From the NCBI GenBank assembly GCA_029250385.1, contig JAQXFJ010000217.1, positions 1-27,657 of the forward strand: a stretch of DNA of 27,657 nucleotides, in the 5' to 3' direction. Shown here piece after piece: positions 495-6,099 of this stretch. The DNA is from Candidatus Poseidoniaceae archaeon. Lineage in GTDB: Archaea; Thermoplasmatota; Poseidoniia; Poseidoniales; Poseidoniaceae. The position numbers were made by a program, and so were the translations under genes. Positions within the stretch are counted from its first letter, which is position 1; the number at the start of each line of letters is the position of its first letter. The notes beneath the pieces were generated by a model. The model did not search any database and was not told where the DNA came from. It saw only the letters and a program-made list of their open reading frames with translations.

Positions 495-854
495 CTACAA
501 CAATAATCTAATTCTTCTTTCAATTTCATTTGCAGTTTGCTCAAAAACCTCAAATTGTTGCCCAACAGGATCTTCTAATTCCCAATCCTCATCAATCTTA
601 ATCACAGGGCAATGGACTCCACATCCCATAGAAATTACTTTGTCAAATTTATCAACATTGAAGTTATCCAGACTTTTTGGCTTTACTTTTGTGGTATCAA
701 TACCTCGGTTTTGTAAGACTGTTATGGCATGCTTAGATACTGCTTTAGCAGGATGGGTTCCTGCAGACTCTGCTTTATGTCCAAGCGATATCGCAATCCC
801 TTCAGCCATCTGAGAGCGGCAAGAATTCCCAACGCAAACAAATAAGATACGCAT
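495..854 (-). CDS. arsC: arsenate reductase ArsC / LMW-PTP family, 119 aa
   Basis: P-loop CVGNSCRSQMAEG, SAGT, MGCGVHCP resolving-cysteine pair and WELEDP. Confidence 0.85.
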   Translation of the reverse strand: MRILFVCVGNSCRSQMAEGIAISLGHKAESAGTHPAKAVSKHAITVLQNRGIDTTKVKPKSLDNFNVDKFDKVISMGCGVHCPVIKIDEDWELEDPVGQQFEVFEQTANEIERRIRLLL

Positions 855-940
855 GTGTTGTTGTCAAATTGATGATATTTAATTTATTTCTAAGTAGAAT
901 AATGCCACAGTTAACAAGTATGAATAATCTCGAATTACAT

Positions 941-1309
941 ATGAGCAATACTTGGCAAGACTTGCAAAGTATTTTCATCTATGGTGTGATTTTTGCCCTG
1001 CTATTTACTTTACATATCATTTTTGCAGCCGCTAATCTAGAACTTCTGTTTCGCATTGTCGCCATAATGCTAAGCATGATGATCTTTTTTTGTGGGTCAT
1101 GTCTGGTATATCTCGAGAAATCAAAGGTACGATATTCCTCTTTGTACAATATTGGGATGATTGTTTCTTGCCCTCTGGCCATTGGTTTAGGTTGGGCATA
1201 CGGCGGGATGTCAACTTCGGTAAGTATGGTACTATTTCCGATGATAACTCTAATTATTCATTACACCATAAAGAAAATTTTCTTTGGTCGCACCTATGGG
1301 TTGAAGTAG
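941..1309 (+). CDS. hypothetical membrane protein (about 4 TM)
   Basis: Hydrophobic ORF with about four TM stretches. Start uncertain (in-frame ATGs at 902, 920, 941; track uses 869). No family recognised. Confidence 0.6.
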   Translation: MSNTWQDLQSIFIYGVIFALLFTLHIIFAAANLELLFRIVAIMLSMMIFFCGSCLVYLEKSKVRYSSLYNIGMIVSCPLAIGLGWAYGGMSTSVSMVLFPMITLIIHYTIKKIFFGRTYGLK

Positions 1310-1329
1310 GACTATTATTTGTAAATGCC

Positions 1330-2337
1330 ATGGCCGATTCACCGGTATCTACACACAACCCCAACTCTGCTGCACCATCAGATGATGCTTCACCGCAACA
1401 ACAGAAGCAAATGGAAAGCGCTTATGCTAACATGAAGCGTAAAATGTCAATGCAAGAAATTGGTAGAAAAATCAAACACAAAGTGATGGTTTTATCTGGC
1501 AAAGGCGGCGTTGGTAAATCAACTGTTGCAACAGGCTTAGCACTTTCACTAGCTCAAGAAGGTCACTCTGTGGGCATATTAGATATTGACATCACGGGTC
1601 CAAATGTACCAAAGATGATGGGACTTGACCGCAAGAGATTGCATGTTGAACAAGGCAGAATACATCCAGCTCAAGGCCACCTTGGAGTTAAGGTCATATC
1701 GATGGCTTTCCTACTAGAAGATGAAGACACCCCTGTAGTTTGGCGAGGGCCGATAAAACTGGGTGCTATTCAACAATTTATTGGTGATGTTGAGTGGGGT
1801 GAACTTGACTATCTAGTCATCGATTTCCCACCGGGTACCTCTGACGAACCACTTACAGTAGCACAATCATTACCTGATATTGACGGTATGGTTATTGTCA
1901 CAACACCTCAAGATGTGGCACTACTCGATAGTCGTAAATCGATTACCTTCTCTGAATCATTGAAAGTTCCAGTTTTGGGCGTTGTTGAGAACATGAGTGG
2001 CTACACTATATCTGGAAAAACTTCGCCTGATAATGATATTGAAATCGCTGGCCCAGGGGGTAAAAAGCACAAAGCTACAGCTGACTCTGATGGTAATTTC
2101 AACGTGACGCTAGATATCTTCAAACAGGGTGGCGGAAAATCAACTGCAGAAGAGTTTGGTGTACCATTTTTGGGTTCATTACCTTTTGATCCTGGTTTCG
2201 TTAGAGGCGGAGATGATGGAGTACATCGCATTGTTAGCGAACCTGAAGGGGCTTCAGCGATTGCGTTTGCCAAGGTGGTGGAAGCGATAAAATCTCAAAT
2301 CGGGTCATCAGAAAGTCAAGGACTGGAAATTATCTGA
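1330..2337 (+). CDS. mrp: Mrp/ApbC/Nbp35-family P-loop ATPase, cysteine-free variant, 335 aa
   Basis: SGKGGVGKST, DIDITGPNVP, VVWRGP, DYLVIDFPPGTSD, VTTPQDVALLD and GVVENMS motifs. ATG 1330 chosen because the upstream extension overlaps the previous gene. Confidence 0.93.
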   Translation: MADSPVSTHNPNSAAPSDDASPQQQKQMESAYANMKRKMSMQEIGRKIKHKVMVLSGKGGVGKSTVATGLALSLAQEGHSVGILDIDITGPNVPKMMGLDRKRLHVEQGRIHPAQGHLGVKVISMAFLLEDEDTPVVWRGPIKLGAIQQFIGDVEWGELDYLVIDFPPGTSDEPLTVAQSLPDIDGMVIVTTPQDVALLDSRKSITFSESLKVPVLGVVENMSGYTISGKTSPDNDIEIAGPGGKKHKATADSDGNFNVTLDIFKQGGGKSTAEEFGVPFLGSLPFDPGFVRGGDDGVHRIVSEPEGASAIAFAKVVEAIKSQIGSSESQGLEII

Positions 2338-2346
2338 GGTGGGATA

Positions 2347-2697
2347 ATGTCAGATGTTCCAGATTTAACACGGCTTGAAAGACGTGATACAGATATGAAA
2401 TTGACTTACGCTGATGGTGGCGAATTTACGGTAACTTATGATGACTTGAAGCACGCTTGCCCTTGTGCAAAATGTGCACCGCTGCGCAATGATGACGGCA
2501 ATAGTAAAACCCTAAGGAGACAAATAGAAGCAATGGCGCCTGAGAAACCTCAGGTGCGCCCGGTAGGGAAATACGCCTTAGGTTTTGAATGGAAAAACGG
2601 ATGCTCAAGTGGTATTTATCGCTTTGAGCGAATATGGGCTTTGGCTAATAATCAAGATCCAGATAACGGCAAACCCTATGTGCACGGAGCATGGTAA
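2347..2697 (+). CDS. DUF971 / GBBH-like N-terminal domain protein, 116 aa
   Basis: CPCAKC (2458-2475) and VGKYALGFEWKNGCSSGIY, matching the DUF971 pattern VG.YA..i.w.dGh..GIY. SD GAGGTG overlaps the mrp stop. Confidence 0.8.
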   Translation: MSDVPDLTRLERRDTDMKLTYADGGEFTVTYDDLKHACPCAKCAPLRNDDGNSKTLRRQIEAMAPEKPQVRPVGKYALGFEWKNGCSSGIYRFERIWALANNQDPDNGKPYVHGAW

Positions 2698-2780
2698 AGC
2701 CACTAAATGACTTAACAGGCCATAAAACGGCGAGGGTTTGATGTATAGTTGGGCGACCGGTAAATTGGAAGGAACCTATT

Positions 2781-4859
2781 ATGCAGGGAGTTTACCTCAC
2801 TTGGATGATTAGTGCGTTAGCTCTAGGTGTGCTATTACTACCAGTGTTCAAACCCAAATGGATGGAGTTAAAACTAACTACATTTGTTGACTTCTTTCGT
2901 AGATATTGGATTCATATTTTGATTCTATTCATGATCTACAACGCCAAGGATGGATTAGATGAAATTGATAGAATCTTGATGGCCTCAACAGGACTAGATA
3001 TGACGCCTTGGATATATGCCATTGAAGGTAATCTAGTTTTACATGTGCAGCAATATTTTGAAGCGGAATGGCTTACCATAACTCTAACTCATTTTTACGT
3101 TGCAGGGTTCATGTTCATTTGTTATGTTTCAGTATTCTACTTCGCTTACTTCGATGACCGTTGGATGGCTGATAGAATTACTCTAACTATTGCCTGGGTC
3201 TACATCCTAGCCATCCCATTTTACTTGTTCTTCAATGTCCGGGTAACCGGTTCTTATATTCCAGAAATGAAGACTTTAGCCTACTCATTGAATCCAGAAA
3301 TAGCGGATTGGTTCAGGAGAATCGACCCATTTACTAACTGCATGCCGTCGTTACATATCGGCATTCCATACGCCGTTTGGCTATGTATGAAACGTTTTGA
3401 CCATGATGACCGATGGGAATTATATCGCAAGATTGTATTTGCTTATGTTATGTTGACTGCCTTTACCATTATTTATTTGGGAATACACTGGATTTTGGAT
3501 ATTGCAGGGGGAATGATAATTGCCTCAATTGCGGTTAATCTTGCGGATAAAACCTCAAAGCCGATATGGAGCATATTGGATGAGAGAACAATTAATTCTC
3601 GCCTTGTCACAGTTCTTACCAATCCTAAAAAAGCATACAAAATAGTTTCACAAAAGGTTGCTAAATCCGCTAAATCTTTCCTAAAGCCCACTTCCAGAGA
3701 GACAGGCATTATGGCTGTCATTTTGGTAATAATTGTGGCTTCAGTTATCACCTGGGATTTGACACATCAATCACTTTCAGCCAAAGGTGTTGAGGCTCCA
3801 GAAGGAGCTAGTGGCGCAGATGGATGGCTAGCGACCTTAGATAATACCTCTGAATTTGGTGCTGTTCTAAAATTATATGATTTATCAGAACTCGATAAAG
3901 ATGGCATAGAAGTAATTCAACCTAACTTATCGGTTAATTCGATATACCATATTTCAGGTGATAAATTAGTAATGGCTAATGCCACAGATCTGTATGTGAT
4001 TGATGTGACTTCGCCGGAGGAAATATTCTATCAAAAGTCAATTAATGGCATTGAACAAATAGAGATGTGTGACTTAGGTGAATACTATGTGCTACTCACC
4101 TTAGAAGACGGGGCATTGTCTGCAGAGAACCTCGATGGAGAGGCAATTGATCTTTCAATAGATGTCAACAATATCTCTTATGTAAATTGCCAAGGAAATG
4201 ATTTTGCTTACCTTTCAGAAAACTATCCGGACAAGGTTTTCATGAGTAATCTTGAGTTGTCTGGCGCCCTATCCTATCAAATAAATGCTTCAGCAGAAGA
4301 AGAGGTTGAGCAAGTTTTAGCCGATTGGGATACACCAGTTGATATTCAGAATGCCACAATTACCAACATCGTATTTGACAAATCTCACTTACTGGTAAGT
4401 GTCAATGTTTCATCAGTAGATAGAATTGTCTTAGTTGATAGAGAGTCTACGGACTATCGTCTGCTTGGTGACGGTAAATATTCGTCATATGACCCATCAA
4501 TCCGCGACGGTATCGTTGCATGGGCGATGAAAGATCACTTAAATCCATCAAGTCCGATTGAAGAATACTTTGATGGAGAAATATTCTACATGGAAATTGC
4601 TGATAATTTTACCCATGTACTTACCGCAGATGAGGTGGACCAGTGGGGCCCAATAGTTTTGGAAGACCATTTGGTATACTTTGAAGAGTCCAATGATGGG
4701 GTAATAATCCAAGTTCATACTTGGGAGCCTGAGTTAAAGTCATATTCGAATATAATTTTACAATCAGGTTCTGTAATTGGTATCATGCTCGTATTTGCTT
4801 ACATAAATCAAAGGCAAACAGAAATAAAAAATAGTAAATTCCAGTCAGAAGAGGAATAG
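2781..4859 (+). CDS. PAP2_3 / Aur1 (IPC-synthase-like) membrane phosphatase or phosphotransferase fused to an extracellular beta-propeller-like domain, 692 aa
   Basis: Multi-TM N-terminus with NCMPSLHIG and IYLGIHWILD catalytic motifs. About 330-aa acidic beta-rich region with YDPSIRDGIVAW and DQWGPIVLEDHLVY repeats. C-terminal TM helix. Confidence 0.75.
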   Translation: MQGVYLTWMISALALGVLLLPVFKPKWMELKLTTFVDFFRRYWIHILILFMIYNAKDGLDEIDRILMASTGLDMTPWIYAIEGNLVLHVQQYFEAEWLTITLTHFYVAGFMFICYVSVFYFAYFDDRWMADRITLTIAWVYILAIPFYLFFNVRVTGSYIPEMKTLAYSLNPEIADWFRRIDPFTNCMPSLHIGIPYAVWLCMKRFDHDDRWELYRKIVFAYVMLTAFTIIYLGIHWILDIAGGMIIASIAVNLADKTSKPIWSILDERTINSRLVTVLTNPKKAYKIVSQKVAKSAKSFLKPTSRETGIMAVILVIIVASVITWDLTHQSLSAKGVEAPEGASGADGWLATLDNTSEFGAVLKLYDLSELDKDGIEVIQPNLSVNSIYHISGDKLVMANATDLYVIDVTSPEEIFYQKSINGIEQIEMCDLGEYYVLLTLEDGALSAENLDGEAIDLSIDVNNISYVNCQGNDFAYLSENYPDKVFMSNLELSGALSYQINASAEEEVEQVLADWDTPVDIQNATITNIVFDKSHLLVSVNVSSVDRIVLVDRESTDYRLLGDGKYSSYDPSIRDGIVAWAMKDHLNPSSPIEEYFDGEIFYMEIADNFTHVLTADEVDQWGPIVLEDHLVYFEESNDGVIIQVHTWEPELKSYSNIILQSGSVIGIMLVFAYINQRQTEIKNSKFQSEEE

Positions 4860-4860
4860 A

Positions 4861-5979
4861 TTATTTCTTGATACTTAGCATTCTTTCAAGCGCTAGTAAT
4901 GACCCTTCTTCAACAGATTTGGATACACTAATTTGATTCGGTACTTCTCCATCAATAATTCGTTCTAATACATCCATTAAGTAGGCAGGATGAATCATGT
5001 ACATTGTGGAACAAGGACAGACTTTATCATCGAGACATTCAATTATTTTATCAGGATTAGATTCTGCTAACCTAGCAACCATGTTTATTTCAGTGCCAAT
5101 GGCTATTTTTGCGCCTGTGGGCTGTTGTTCAACATAATTTTTGATAAATTGTGTAGAACCATTTGCATCACTGACTTCGACAGTCTCTTTGGGGCATTCG
5201 GGATGGACAACGACAAGTCCATCTGGGTGTCTGTCACGAAATTCTTCTACCTGCTCAACAGTGAACCTTTTGTGCACTGAACAAAAGCCGTGCCATAGAA
5301 TTATTTTGGCATCATTAAGACTCGAATCAGCGCCGATTTTCGGTATCCATGTTGGCATCATTTGTTCACTTATTCCCATCTTTATTCCTGTGTTGCGGCC
5401 AAGGTGTTGATCTGGGAAGAATAACACTGTTCCGTTTGGGCCAGCACGATCAAAGGCCCAATTTAGTATTCCAGTTGCATTGGATGATGTGCAAACTATT
5501 CCACCATGACGTCCAACGAAATCTTTCAAGTCAGCACTACTATTCATGTAGGTTACTGGAATAAGATATGATTTTCCATCAGTGGGGATCTCTCCAGGAG
5601 CAGTTCTATCGATGGGATCGCCAAGTTTTGTTTCAGCTAAAATCTCGGCCCATGCCTCTTCAACATCAACTAATGTTGCCATGTCTGCCATTGAGCACCC
5701 TGCCCTTAAATTTGGGAGAATTACATGTTGTTGTTCATTTGTCAATATGTCAGCAGATTCTGCCATAAAATGAACTCCACAAAATACAATGTATTTGGCA
5801 GTTGAATCTGCGGCTTTTTGACTTAGCATAAAGGAATCACCGATAAAATCAGCGTGCATAACTATGCTGTCTCTCTGGTAGTGATGGCCTAAAATCATCA
5901 AGTCTGAACCGAGTTGTTTCCTTAGTTCAGTAATTCTCTCAGCAATTGCTTGCTCCTCAGGGGAAAGAGAGGTGTCCAT
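4861..5979 (-). CDS. nadA: quinolinate synthase NadA, 372 aa
   Basis: ILGHHYQ, FCGVHFMAE, AGCSMAD, YMNSSA, CTSSNA, PDQHLG, GFCSVH, VHPEC, GTEINM, CPCSTM; three [4Fe-4S] cysteines present. ATG 5979 preferred. Confidence 0.96.
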   Translation of the reverse strand: MDTSLSPEEQAIAERITELRKQLGSDLMILGHHYQRDSIVMHADFIGDSFMLSQKAADSTAKYIVFCGVHFMAESADILTNEQQHVILPNLRAGCSMADMATLVDVEEAWAEILAETKLGDPIDRTAPGEIPTDGKSYLIPVTYMNSSADLKDFVGRHGGIVCTSSNATGILNWAFDRAGPNGTVLFFPDQHLGRNTGIKMGISEQMMPTWIPKIGADSSLNDAKIILWHGFCSVHKRFTVEQVEEFRDRHPDGLVVVHPECPKETVEVSDANGSTQFIKNYVEQQPTGAKIAIGTEINMVARLAESNPDKIIECLDDKVCPCSTMYMIHPAYLMDVLERIIDGEVPNQISVSKSVEEGSLLALERMLSIKK

Positions 5980-6099
5980 GAAATCTATGGAGCACATTGG
6001 CAGGGTAATCGTCATATGCCTCATGATAGCCAACAGTTATCCCTTTTTCAACAATTGTGAGTGCGTGATATACATAAGTAAGGGCATTGAGCGGGACTC

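Follow-up and report, generated by a model that had tools for sequence, protein, structure and literature searches.

Poseidoniales (Marine Group II, MGII) are widespread marine planktonic archaea, and a stretch of DNA from one of them (Candidatus Poseidoniaceae archaeon, assembly GCA_029250385.1, contig JAQXFJ010000217.1, 27,657 nucleotides of the forward strand; hereafter the window) raises the question of what remains of an iron-sulphur (Fe-S) carrier ATPase once its cluster ligands are gone. The gene concerned, mrp, encodes a P-loop ATPase of the Mrp/NBP35 type, and the positions of this and the other features discussed are collected in Table 1. The family is defined by two signatures, one of them a CxxC motif located at the two-fold axis of the dimer, where it links the monomers through a shared [4Fe-4S] cluster, and the role of the ATPase activity in these proteins is unclear (PMC6345978). 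Translation of the mrp frame gave 335 residues with no internal stop and not a single cysteine. By composition this absence is only mildly unusual (P ~0.04, with cysteine at 0.98% in the long open reading frames of the window); more telling is that a motif defining the family has been lost.

Against the PF10609 profile (NUBPL/ParA iron-transfer P-loop NTPase) Mrp scored 298 bits with a cut-off of 27.1, which places it in this Pfam family, while it fell below the NCBIfam equivalog cut-offs for ApbC (NF008669, 206.6 versus 348) and MrpORP (NF041136, 321 versus 450) and below those for MinD (minD_arch, 70.5 versus 201.75; minD_bact, 51.1 versus 212.9). The deviant Walker A sequence GKGGhGK[ST], one of the hallmarks of Mrp/NBP35 proteins (PMC6345978), was present, and the CXXC expected after ENMS under the same definition was absent from Mrp and from all orthologues of the order that were read. 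The nucleotide-binding motifs coincided with invariant columns of a 122-sequence family alignment (Table 1), as did a W138-RGP motif that is also intact, and the initial annotation was thus right in pairing a complete lack of cysteine with intact ATPase motifs. The best solved relatives by sequence were Cfd1 (6g2g), the A. fulgidus protein AF2382/AF_226 (2ph1, 3kb1) and ApbC (8zkc), with E-values of 1e-52 to 1e-54. An AlphaFold2 model built with the family alignment had a predicted local distance difference test score (pLDDT) of 88.8 and a predicted template modelling score of 0.86, and a Foldseek search of the PDB with it returned ApbC 8zkc, AF2382 2ph1 and Cfd1 6g2g first (E 1e-24 to 1e-21), followed by entries for T. 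kodakarensis HypB, an Mrp/MinD-type protein, some of them in complex with HypA (5aun). The canonical carriers (ApbC, Cfd1, AF2382 and MrpORP) share the fold and the ATPase motifs with Mrp, at 35-38% structure-based identity; where they have CxxC, the Poseidoniales protein has a 38-residue beta insert and no cysteine.

All HMMER matches to Mrp were split at one place, between ENMS and DIFKQGGG, the PF10609 match falling into two pieces (profile positions 1-181 and 185-245). From E220-NMS to D262-IFKQGGG there are 38 residues in Mrp and 11, including the CxxC, in canonical relatives, and the distance between the ENMS and GGG blocks is 43 as against 16. This segment is predicted to form a four-strand beta-meander (residues 225-230, 236-240, 246-250 and 256-261, by DSSP on the AlphaFold2 model), with pLDDT averaging 88-96 in 10-residue blocks; its resemblance to Big_6 was weak (22.8 bits, under the cut-off). 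Since the CxxC loop lies on the dimer two-fold (PMC6345978), the insert should occupy the former cluster site. With this loop replaced and with no cysteine elsewhere, Mrp therefore cannot bridge a [4Fe-4S] cluster through cysteines of its own, and the earlier statements that the C-terminal CxxC is missing and that canonical bridging is closed to this Mrp/NBP35 homologue both hold.

Across the orthologues the insert keeps its length and its pattern of Gly, Pro and hydrophobic residues, its identity between Poseidoniaceae and Thalassarchaeaceae being 43% as compared with 78% for the core. No invariant Cys, His, Asp, Glu or Met was found in residues 225-261 among 29 orthologues, and the only invariant histidines of Mrp in this set, H50 and H299, both lie outside the insert. 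These residues bear on whether Mrp could itself bind a cluster or metal at the dimer interface through non-cysteine ligands or an external thiol. The site would be the same as in Cfd1 and ApbC, and plastid HCF101, a member of the family without CxxC, nevertheless holds a [4Fe-4S] cluster (PMC2805927). HCF101, however, uses other cysteines for this purpose, of which the Poseidoniales Mrp has none, and the insert offers no invariant residue in their place, so that such binding appears quite improbable. Non-cysteine ligands in the insert were rejected as a candidate on these grounds. The insert probably serves for contact between proteins, latching the dimer or docking a partner, and not for holding a metal.

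A search of 40 relatives, drawn from three families of the order, found an orthologue with 61-100% identity in 36. The 29 further orthologues, from Poseidoniaceae and Thalassarchaeaceae, all lacked the CxxC and kept the insert, with some Mrps on the Thalassarchaeaceae side carrying one cysteine elsewhere, and two cluster representatives of 59% identity, taken as the third family (f2), had the same loop, again without CxxC. The split PF10609 match (1 to ~181 and ~185 to 245) recurred in 67 of 69 further Poseidoniales genomes that were at least 90% complete; in G064 the match ended early, at profile position 143, and in G041 there was no strong match. A second strong PF10609 match was found in none of the 69. 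Mrp is the sole Mrp-like gene in 68 of these 69 high-quality genomes, G041 being the one without a strong match. The two points that the initial annotation had wanted checked have therefore been settled, in that no orthologue in the order retains the CxxC and no canonical paralogue was found in the order genomes searched. Word-based homologue searches returned close Poseidoniales relatives only and were uninformative on the deep distribution of the protein.

Positions 1000-3000 of the window were compared with the Logan contigs of four runs of marine metatranscriptomes. In three of the runs, from as many studies, RNA-library contigs from a strain of 98-99% identity extended from 1338, 1342 or 1377 to 2459-2786, and 16 of their 19 differences from the window inside mrp fell at third codon positions. 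The junction between mrp and the DUF971 gene immediately downstream was bridged by one contig each in runs X1 and X3, and two contigs of X2 overlapped just past the junction; sequence upstream of 1335 was covered in none of the four runs. The boundaries of coverage match the mrp-DUF971 pair, with DNA carry-over possible.

It could be objected that the locus represents an assembly artefact, a recent pseudogene-like decay or a mis-called reading frame, the more so as the source genome is a fragmented metagenome-assembled genome (MAG; 363 contigs, 75% complete) and as mrp is interrupted near residue 296 in the relative G043. The same architecture is nevertheless present in the 29 further orthologues from independent genomes, as is the split profile match in 67 of 69 others, the substitutions are mostly at third codon positions, the gene occurs in RNA libraries and the fold, insert included, is predicted with high confidence. 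The objection is effectively refuted, and Mrp is an intact, expressed and selectively maintained nucleotide-dependent ATPase of the dimer-type P-loop class. In G043, a single-contig relative (C1:1777267-1778270), the frame contains one TGA and the second piece lies in another frame, for which a frameshift, an error of sequencing or a break confined to that strain could account.

If the cysteines that hold a cluster are not on Mrp, they may be supplied by a separate protein, and the candidate encoded next to mrp is the DUF971 protein. DUF971 was single-copy in 69 of 70 genomes of the order, and C38, C40, C43 and C86 were invariant in 42 sequences, the Poseidoniales copies examined having a CxCxxC and a fourth cysteine within G-C-[SN]-[SA]-G. 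The position of Cys86 is occupied by His in solved and bacterial DUF971 proteins and in the fused proteins of Marine Group III (MGIII) described below; the solved structures 3luu, 2l6n and 2l6p contain the same domain with His as the fourth ligand, and in 2l6n the CxCxxC is missing as well. No biochemical function is known for DUF971 (PMC7980591; bioRxiv 10.1101/072470). Its association with Mrp is documented in other organisms, with fusions of the two known from HCF101 and from PVC bacteria (PMC7980591), and with cofitness of Mrp and a stand-alone DUF971 in Shewanella and Pseudomonas (bioRxiv 10.1101/072470). In Poseidoniaceae (genus g1) a spacer of 8-12 nt between the two genes was kept in 19 of 20 loci in which both could be read. 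The gene order low-molecular-weight phosphatase/ArsC-like, mrp, PAP2 is conserved in Poseidoniales, with DUF971 inserted between mrp and PAP2 in Poseidoniaceae only; in the other two families it is located elsewhere in the genome.

A complex prediction was run with two Mrp chains (residues 21-335), two ATP and two DUF971 chains, and gave an ipSAE of 0.34 for the Mrp-DUF971 interface as compared with 0.00 for the best of three controls, a result graded as weak support. The mark applied to such predictions was reached by 58 of 80 solved complexes and by 2 of 110 mismatched pairs, and at an ipSAE of 0.60 or less by 7 of the 80 solved complexes and by both passing mismatches, these benchmark counts being approximate for a run that used its own alignments and a riding ligand. 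The confident predicted contacts joined Mrp residues 331-335 with DUF971 residues 6-12, 70 and 72. The Mrp tail involved, [GS]LEII, is invariant in Poseidoniaceae, and that of Thalassarchaeaceae is similarly hydrophobic (VRI[ST], LRII). A separate observation concerns the C-terminal tail of DUF971 itself, DPDxGKxYVHGAW (window 2659-2694), which is invariant or nearly so in the 42 aligned sequences, missing from the Thalassarchaeaceae copies and from L045, and present in the f2 copy L065; this tail could serve for docking.

In the sister order of the same class, presumably MGIII, DUF59, Mrp and DUF971 are joined in one protein. Most MGIII genera keep ENM[SA]YYHCPECGH and have a DUF971 site of three Cys and one His. 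In one genus, g22 (L068-L074), the CxxC of the fused protein was lost independently (ENMAGFTPPGSDEIFHIFGEGGG), as was the fourth DUF971 ligand position (PSPGAGAGIY). Maximum-likelihood trees of the ATPase cores were computed with the insert columns excluded, and approximately unbiased (AU) tests were run on subsets of 60-62 rows. The MGII Mrp clade fell in the half of the tree marked by ENMSG[FL]xCPxCG, together with the ordinary CxxC Mrps of ~285 aa from other Thermoplasmatota, to which its core is about 50-60% identical, while MGIII grouped with Nitrososphaerota and with bacterial DUF59-type proteins behind a branch of support 99, with MGII outside. Forcing MGII and MGIII together cost 65 log-likelihood units (p-AU 0.012), the group having been named after the first tree was seen. 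As judged from these trees, the ATPase cores of MGII and MGIII are not orthologous, despite what looks like a relationship of the Rosetta-stone kind. Fission of an MGIII-type DUF59-Mrp-DUF971 protein as the origin of the MGII ATPase was rejected by the tree and the AU test.

The tree bears directly on the proposal that the DUF971 cysteines have taken over ligation, such that Mrp and DUF971 together would form a [4Fe-4S] scaffold derived by fission from a DUF59-Mrp-DUF971 ancestor. The gene order mirrors the domain order of HCF101, MGIII possesses the fused protein, at the fourth ligand position of DUF971 all Poseidoniales proteins have Cys and the relatives His, and the complex prediction lends weak support. 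Yet the MGII and MGIII cores lie in different halves of the tree, and their forced union is disfavoured by the AU test as stated above; mrp and DUF971 are unlinked in Thalassarchaeaceae and f2; the genus g22 lost both its CxxC and the fourth DUF971 ligand, with no consistent compensation; and a Cys-free, insert-bearing ATPase occurs without any DUF971 in the genome G147. We consider the proposal rather improbable. A change from His to Cys in DUF971 as compensation for the loss of CxxC was likewise found inconsistent, the two sites having gone together in g22.

G147 belongs to the clade that was recovered as sister to the MGII Mrps (98 by the Shimodaira-Hasegawa-like approximate likelihood-ratio test), which consists of unclassified Thermoplasmatota (G147, 'Mix_sand' MAGs and P0128) whose Mrps carry the same insert and 0-1 Cys. 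As the G147 genome is 94% complete and has a 0-Cys Mrp with the insert and no DUF971 gene, the loss of CxxC predates the pairing with DUF971 or is independent of it. At two of the three sister-clade loci with a readable downstream region, the gene immediately 3' of mrp encodes an A-type Fe-S carrier (PF01521, with a C...CGC motif), starting 4 nt past the mrp frame in one case (L086:3844-4533) and after a gap of ~300 nt in the other (L085:4149-4610). Within ~3 kb of other insert-bearing Mrps no DUF971 was found (13 loci).

The reading that we put forward, and to which we would give an even chance, is that Mrp has kept a place in the maturation of Fe-S proteins, where it would serve as an ATP-driven adaptor or loader for clusters, or metal, carried by separate small Cys-bearing proteins. 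In Poseidoniaceae the partner would be the four-Cys DUF971 encoded 9 nt downstream, and for the sister clade the A-type carrier whose gene follows mrp. Clusters would be supplied and received by the SUF system, a SufT-like DUF59 protein and Nfu and A-type carriers, all encoded elsewhere; there are genes for SufB/D, for one or two A-type carriers and for Nfu-like domains, and a stand-alone DUF59 (SufT-like) gene lies near sufD in the same genome (contig G000:C177). The insert, presumably at the former position of the bridging cluster on the dimer two-fold, would act as a dimer latch or partner dock, and the N-terminal strand of DUF971 is predicted to pair with the conserved LEII tail of Mrp.

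Several lines of evidence favour this adaptor role: the intact motifs and fold, the upkeep of the gene across the order as its sole Mrp, the RNA contigs, the adjacency of DUF971 in Poseidoniaceae, the single-copy occurrence of a four-Cys DUF971, the A-type carrier of the sister clade and the SUF, Nfu and DUF59 set. The fusions and cofitness of Mrp and DUF971 in other organisms, the weak complex score and the precedent of the T. kodakarensis HypB (Tk-mmHypB) point, by analogy, in the same direction. In Tk-mmHypB (PDB 3vx3, 5aun) an Mrp/MinD-type ATPase is paired with a separate small metal-binding protein, HypA, and the Mrp model matches it with a TM-score of 0.64 by query and 0.88-0.89 by target at 30% identity; this would be an analogy of mechanism and not of membership, the sequence similarity being far below that to the Fe-S carriers. 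HypA itself was sought in five MGII genomes and gave no PF01155 match above the cut-off, and a nickel or hydrogenase chaperone role was rejected on that account.

A number of observations weigh against the adaptor role. The three-Cys-plus-His site of DUF971 relatives resembles a structural Zn site, and four cysteines need not mean an Fe-S cluster. The complex prediction scored weakly, and since its contact looks like the covalent linker of the fused relatives, the model may have reproduced what it had learned from these. The contigs from the RNA libraries cannot prove a single mrp-DUF971 transcript. The two genes are unlinked in Thalassarchaeaceae and f2, G147 has the Cys-free Mrp and no DUF971, and the adjacency of the A-type carrier rests on two loci of closely related MAGs. 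The link of Mrp, DUF971 or the insert to a cluster is one that we infer, and the holder of that cluster is a candidate. Set against the three options named in the initial annotation, namely a partner, non-cysteine ligands or a new function, the first is the best supported, by the DUF971 operon, the A-type carrier in the sister clade and the weak complex support, and the second finds no support, with no invariant residue in the insert; the label of scaffold given there to Mrp was unfounded.

It could alternatively be envisaged that Mrp has left Fe-S trafficking altogether and works as a switch of the MinD/ParA kind, with a regulatory or positioning task, much as SalA of B. subtilis, an Mrp-family ATPase, is a transcription regulator and kinase activator (PMC5035731). 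In favour of this, Mrp has no cysteine and its insert no conserved metal ligand, A-type and Nfu carriers could make an Mrp carrier dispensable, and the divergently transcribed low-molecular-weight phosphatase/ArsC-like neighbour is conserved in both Poseidoniaceae and Thalassarchaeaceae. SalA, a published precedent for an Mrp-family ATPase that does other work than carrying clusters, is not closely related to this Mrp, and there is no sign here of DNA binding or kinase activation; neither a DNA-binding nor a membrane-targeting element was seen in Mrp. In addition, the core of Mrp remains close to the canonical CxxC carriers of Thermoplasmatota, its ENMS and GGG blocks are invariant, and Fe-S-related genomic partners occur in both subclades (DUF971 in one, the A-type carrier in the other). 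A departure of this kind is thus unlikely, though it deserves to be kept in mind.

The loss of CxxC is not confined to Poseidoniales. The motif was missing in about 16-18 of 96 full-length representatives of the 50%-identity clusters nearest the query, 5 of the 96 being without any Cys. When the sister-clade protein was compared with its 82 nearest relatives from genomes, 30 of these were without the motif, and among the 30 are many Anaerolineae and Acidobacteriota proteins in which a DUF59 domain precedes an ATPase core free of Cys. Mrps without CxxC, and also Mrps without any Cys, are common in bacteria, and with plastid HCF101 as a further case of a missing CxxC (PMC2805927) the loss is not rare in the family. 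Moreover, an insert of 38-45 residues at the same site was found in DUF59-Mrp proteins of bacteria of the Marinimicrobia type (L107, L108, L125, L113, L117 and P0182) and in P0204. L107, L108 and L125 are assigned to Marinimicrobia/Neomarinimicrobiota, and L075 and L076 are also listed among the bacterial insert-bearing DUF59-Mrps. The bacterial and MGII inserts align well, with a common G-x-[VA] start and a D-x-x-G-x-[FWY]-x-x-x-[LIV]-[DEH]-[LIV]-F end, while the ATPase cores of archaeal and bacterial insert-bearing Mrps fall into distinct groups with good support. Uniting all of these cores in one clade was rejected (p-AU 0.008). The look-alike insert of Marinimicrobia would therefore represent either a convergent gain or a transfer of the insert segment, and its recurrence suggests a solution that evolution can arrive at more than once in the plankton of oxic seawater.

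From this distribution a bolder version of the adaptor role can be drawn, which we regard as possible but doubtful: in place of the bridging cluster the insert would provide a docking platform gated by ATP, with Mrp a loader for interchangeable small carriers, DUF971 in Poseidoniaceae and an A-type protein in the sister clade. Look-alike inserts would have arisen, or been transferred, at least twice, in the archaeal-type Mrp of MGII and Thermoplasmatota and in the DUF59-type Mrp of Marinimicrobia. Were this true, the conserved task of Mrp/NBP35 proteins would be nucleotide-driven handling of partners and not cluster scaffolding, and MGII would provide a natural separation-of-function variant.

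HCF101 and the fusions (plastid HCF101, PVC bacteria and MGIII) are the known systems nearest to the present one, in that Mrp is likewise associated with DUF971 and DUF59 and the CxCxxC is common to DUF971 (PMC7980591). The Poseidoniales Mrp differs from the HCF101 type in having no fused DUF59 (no PF01883 match) and no fused DUF971 domain, the modules being encoded by three genes of which DUF971 alone adjoins mrp, and in Poseidoniaceae alone, and in an ATPase core from a different Mrp lineage than that of the fused proteins. The existence of CxxC-less Mrps (HCF101, PMC2805927) and the link between Mrp and DUF971 (PMC7980591; bioRxiv 10.1101/072470) were already known. New are the non-orthology with the MGIII fusions, the adjacency of the A-type carrier in the sister clade, the look-alike insert in Marinimicrobia and the predicted tail-strand interface. 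No description of an insert-bearing, fully Cys-free, stand-alone Mrp was found in the literature searched, the searches not having been aimed at Poseidoniales, Marine Group II or the insert. With the cluster site of their only Mrp lost, its ATPase kept, and ATPase and putative ligand-bearing module residing on separate polypeptides, Poseidoniales would offer a natural separation-of-function system.

Table 1. Features of the mrp locus, in positions of the window, with the observations on which each assignment is based
Feature	Position	Strand	Basis or remarks
Low-molecular-weight phosphatase/ArsC-like gene, CVGNSCRSQMAEG	495-854	-	Divergent upstream neighbour of mrp, kept in Poseidoniaceae and Thalassarchaeaceae
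mrp, 335-aa Cys-free Mrp/NBP35-type P-loop ATPase	1330-2337 (stop codon 2335-2337)	+	Translation, PF10609, orthologues, AlphaFold2, Foldseek
N-terminal peptide M-[AS]-[DE]-S-P-[VI]-[ST]-[TH]-H	1330-1359	+	Kept in Poseidoniaceae and Thalassarchaeaceae orthologues
Deviant Walker A S56-GKGGVGKST-65, signature Lys58	1495-1524	+	G57, K58, G59, G60, G62, K63 invariant (122-sequence alignment A1)
Walker A'/switch I D85-I-D87-ITGPN	1582-1605	+	D85, D87, G90 invariant (122-sequence alignment)
Walker B region L159-DYLVIDFPPGTSD172	1804-1845	+	D165, P167, P168, G169, D172 invariant (122-sequence alignment)
E220-NMS block, 5' of the CxxC loop in canonical members	1987-1998	+	E220, N221, M222 invariant; aligned to Cfd1, AF2382, ApbC
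38-residue segment (residues 224-261) replacing the 11-residue CxxC loop	1999-2112	+	Alignment with canonical Thermoplasmatota Mrps
C-terminal tail G331-LEII335, predicted contact with first DUF971 strand	2320-2334	+	Complex prediction, conservation
GGTGGG, Shine-Dalgarno-like, in the 9-nt spacer from mrp stop to DUF971 ATG	2338-2343	+	Sequence
DUF971 (GBBH-like_N), 116 aa, candidate partner, four conserved Cys (C38, C40, C43, C86)	2347-2697	+	PF06155, 57.6 bits
PAP2 gene	2781-4859		Conserved downstream neighbour of mrp

At the N terminus of Mrp, residues 1-6 and 12-16 had pLDDT below 50 in the AlphaFold2 model, and the ~15 residues following the conserved N-terminal peptide are variable and of low complexity. 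Upstream of mrp, a 146-aa hydrophobic reading frame without a Pfam match (window 869-1309, + strand) stops 20 nt before the mrp ATG and lies outside the metatranscriptome contigs that span mrp and DUF971. Two genes past the mrp-DUF971 pair (window 4861-6033, - strand) quinolinate synthase NadA is encoded, itself a [4Fe-4S] enzyme, and its proximity is probably coincidental.

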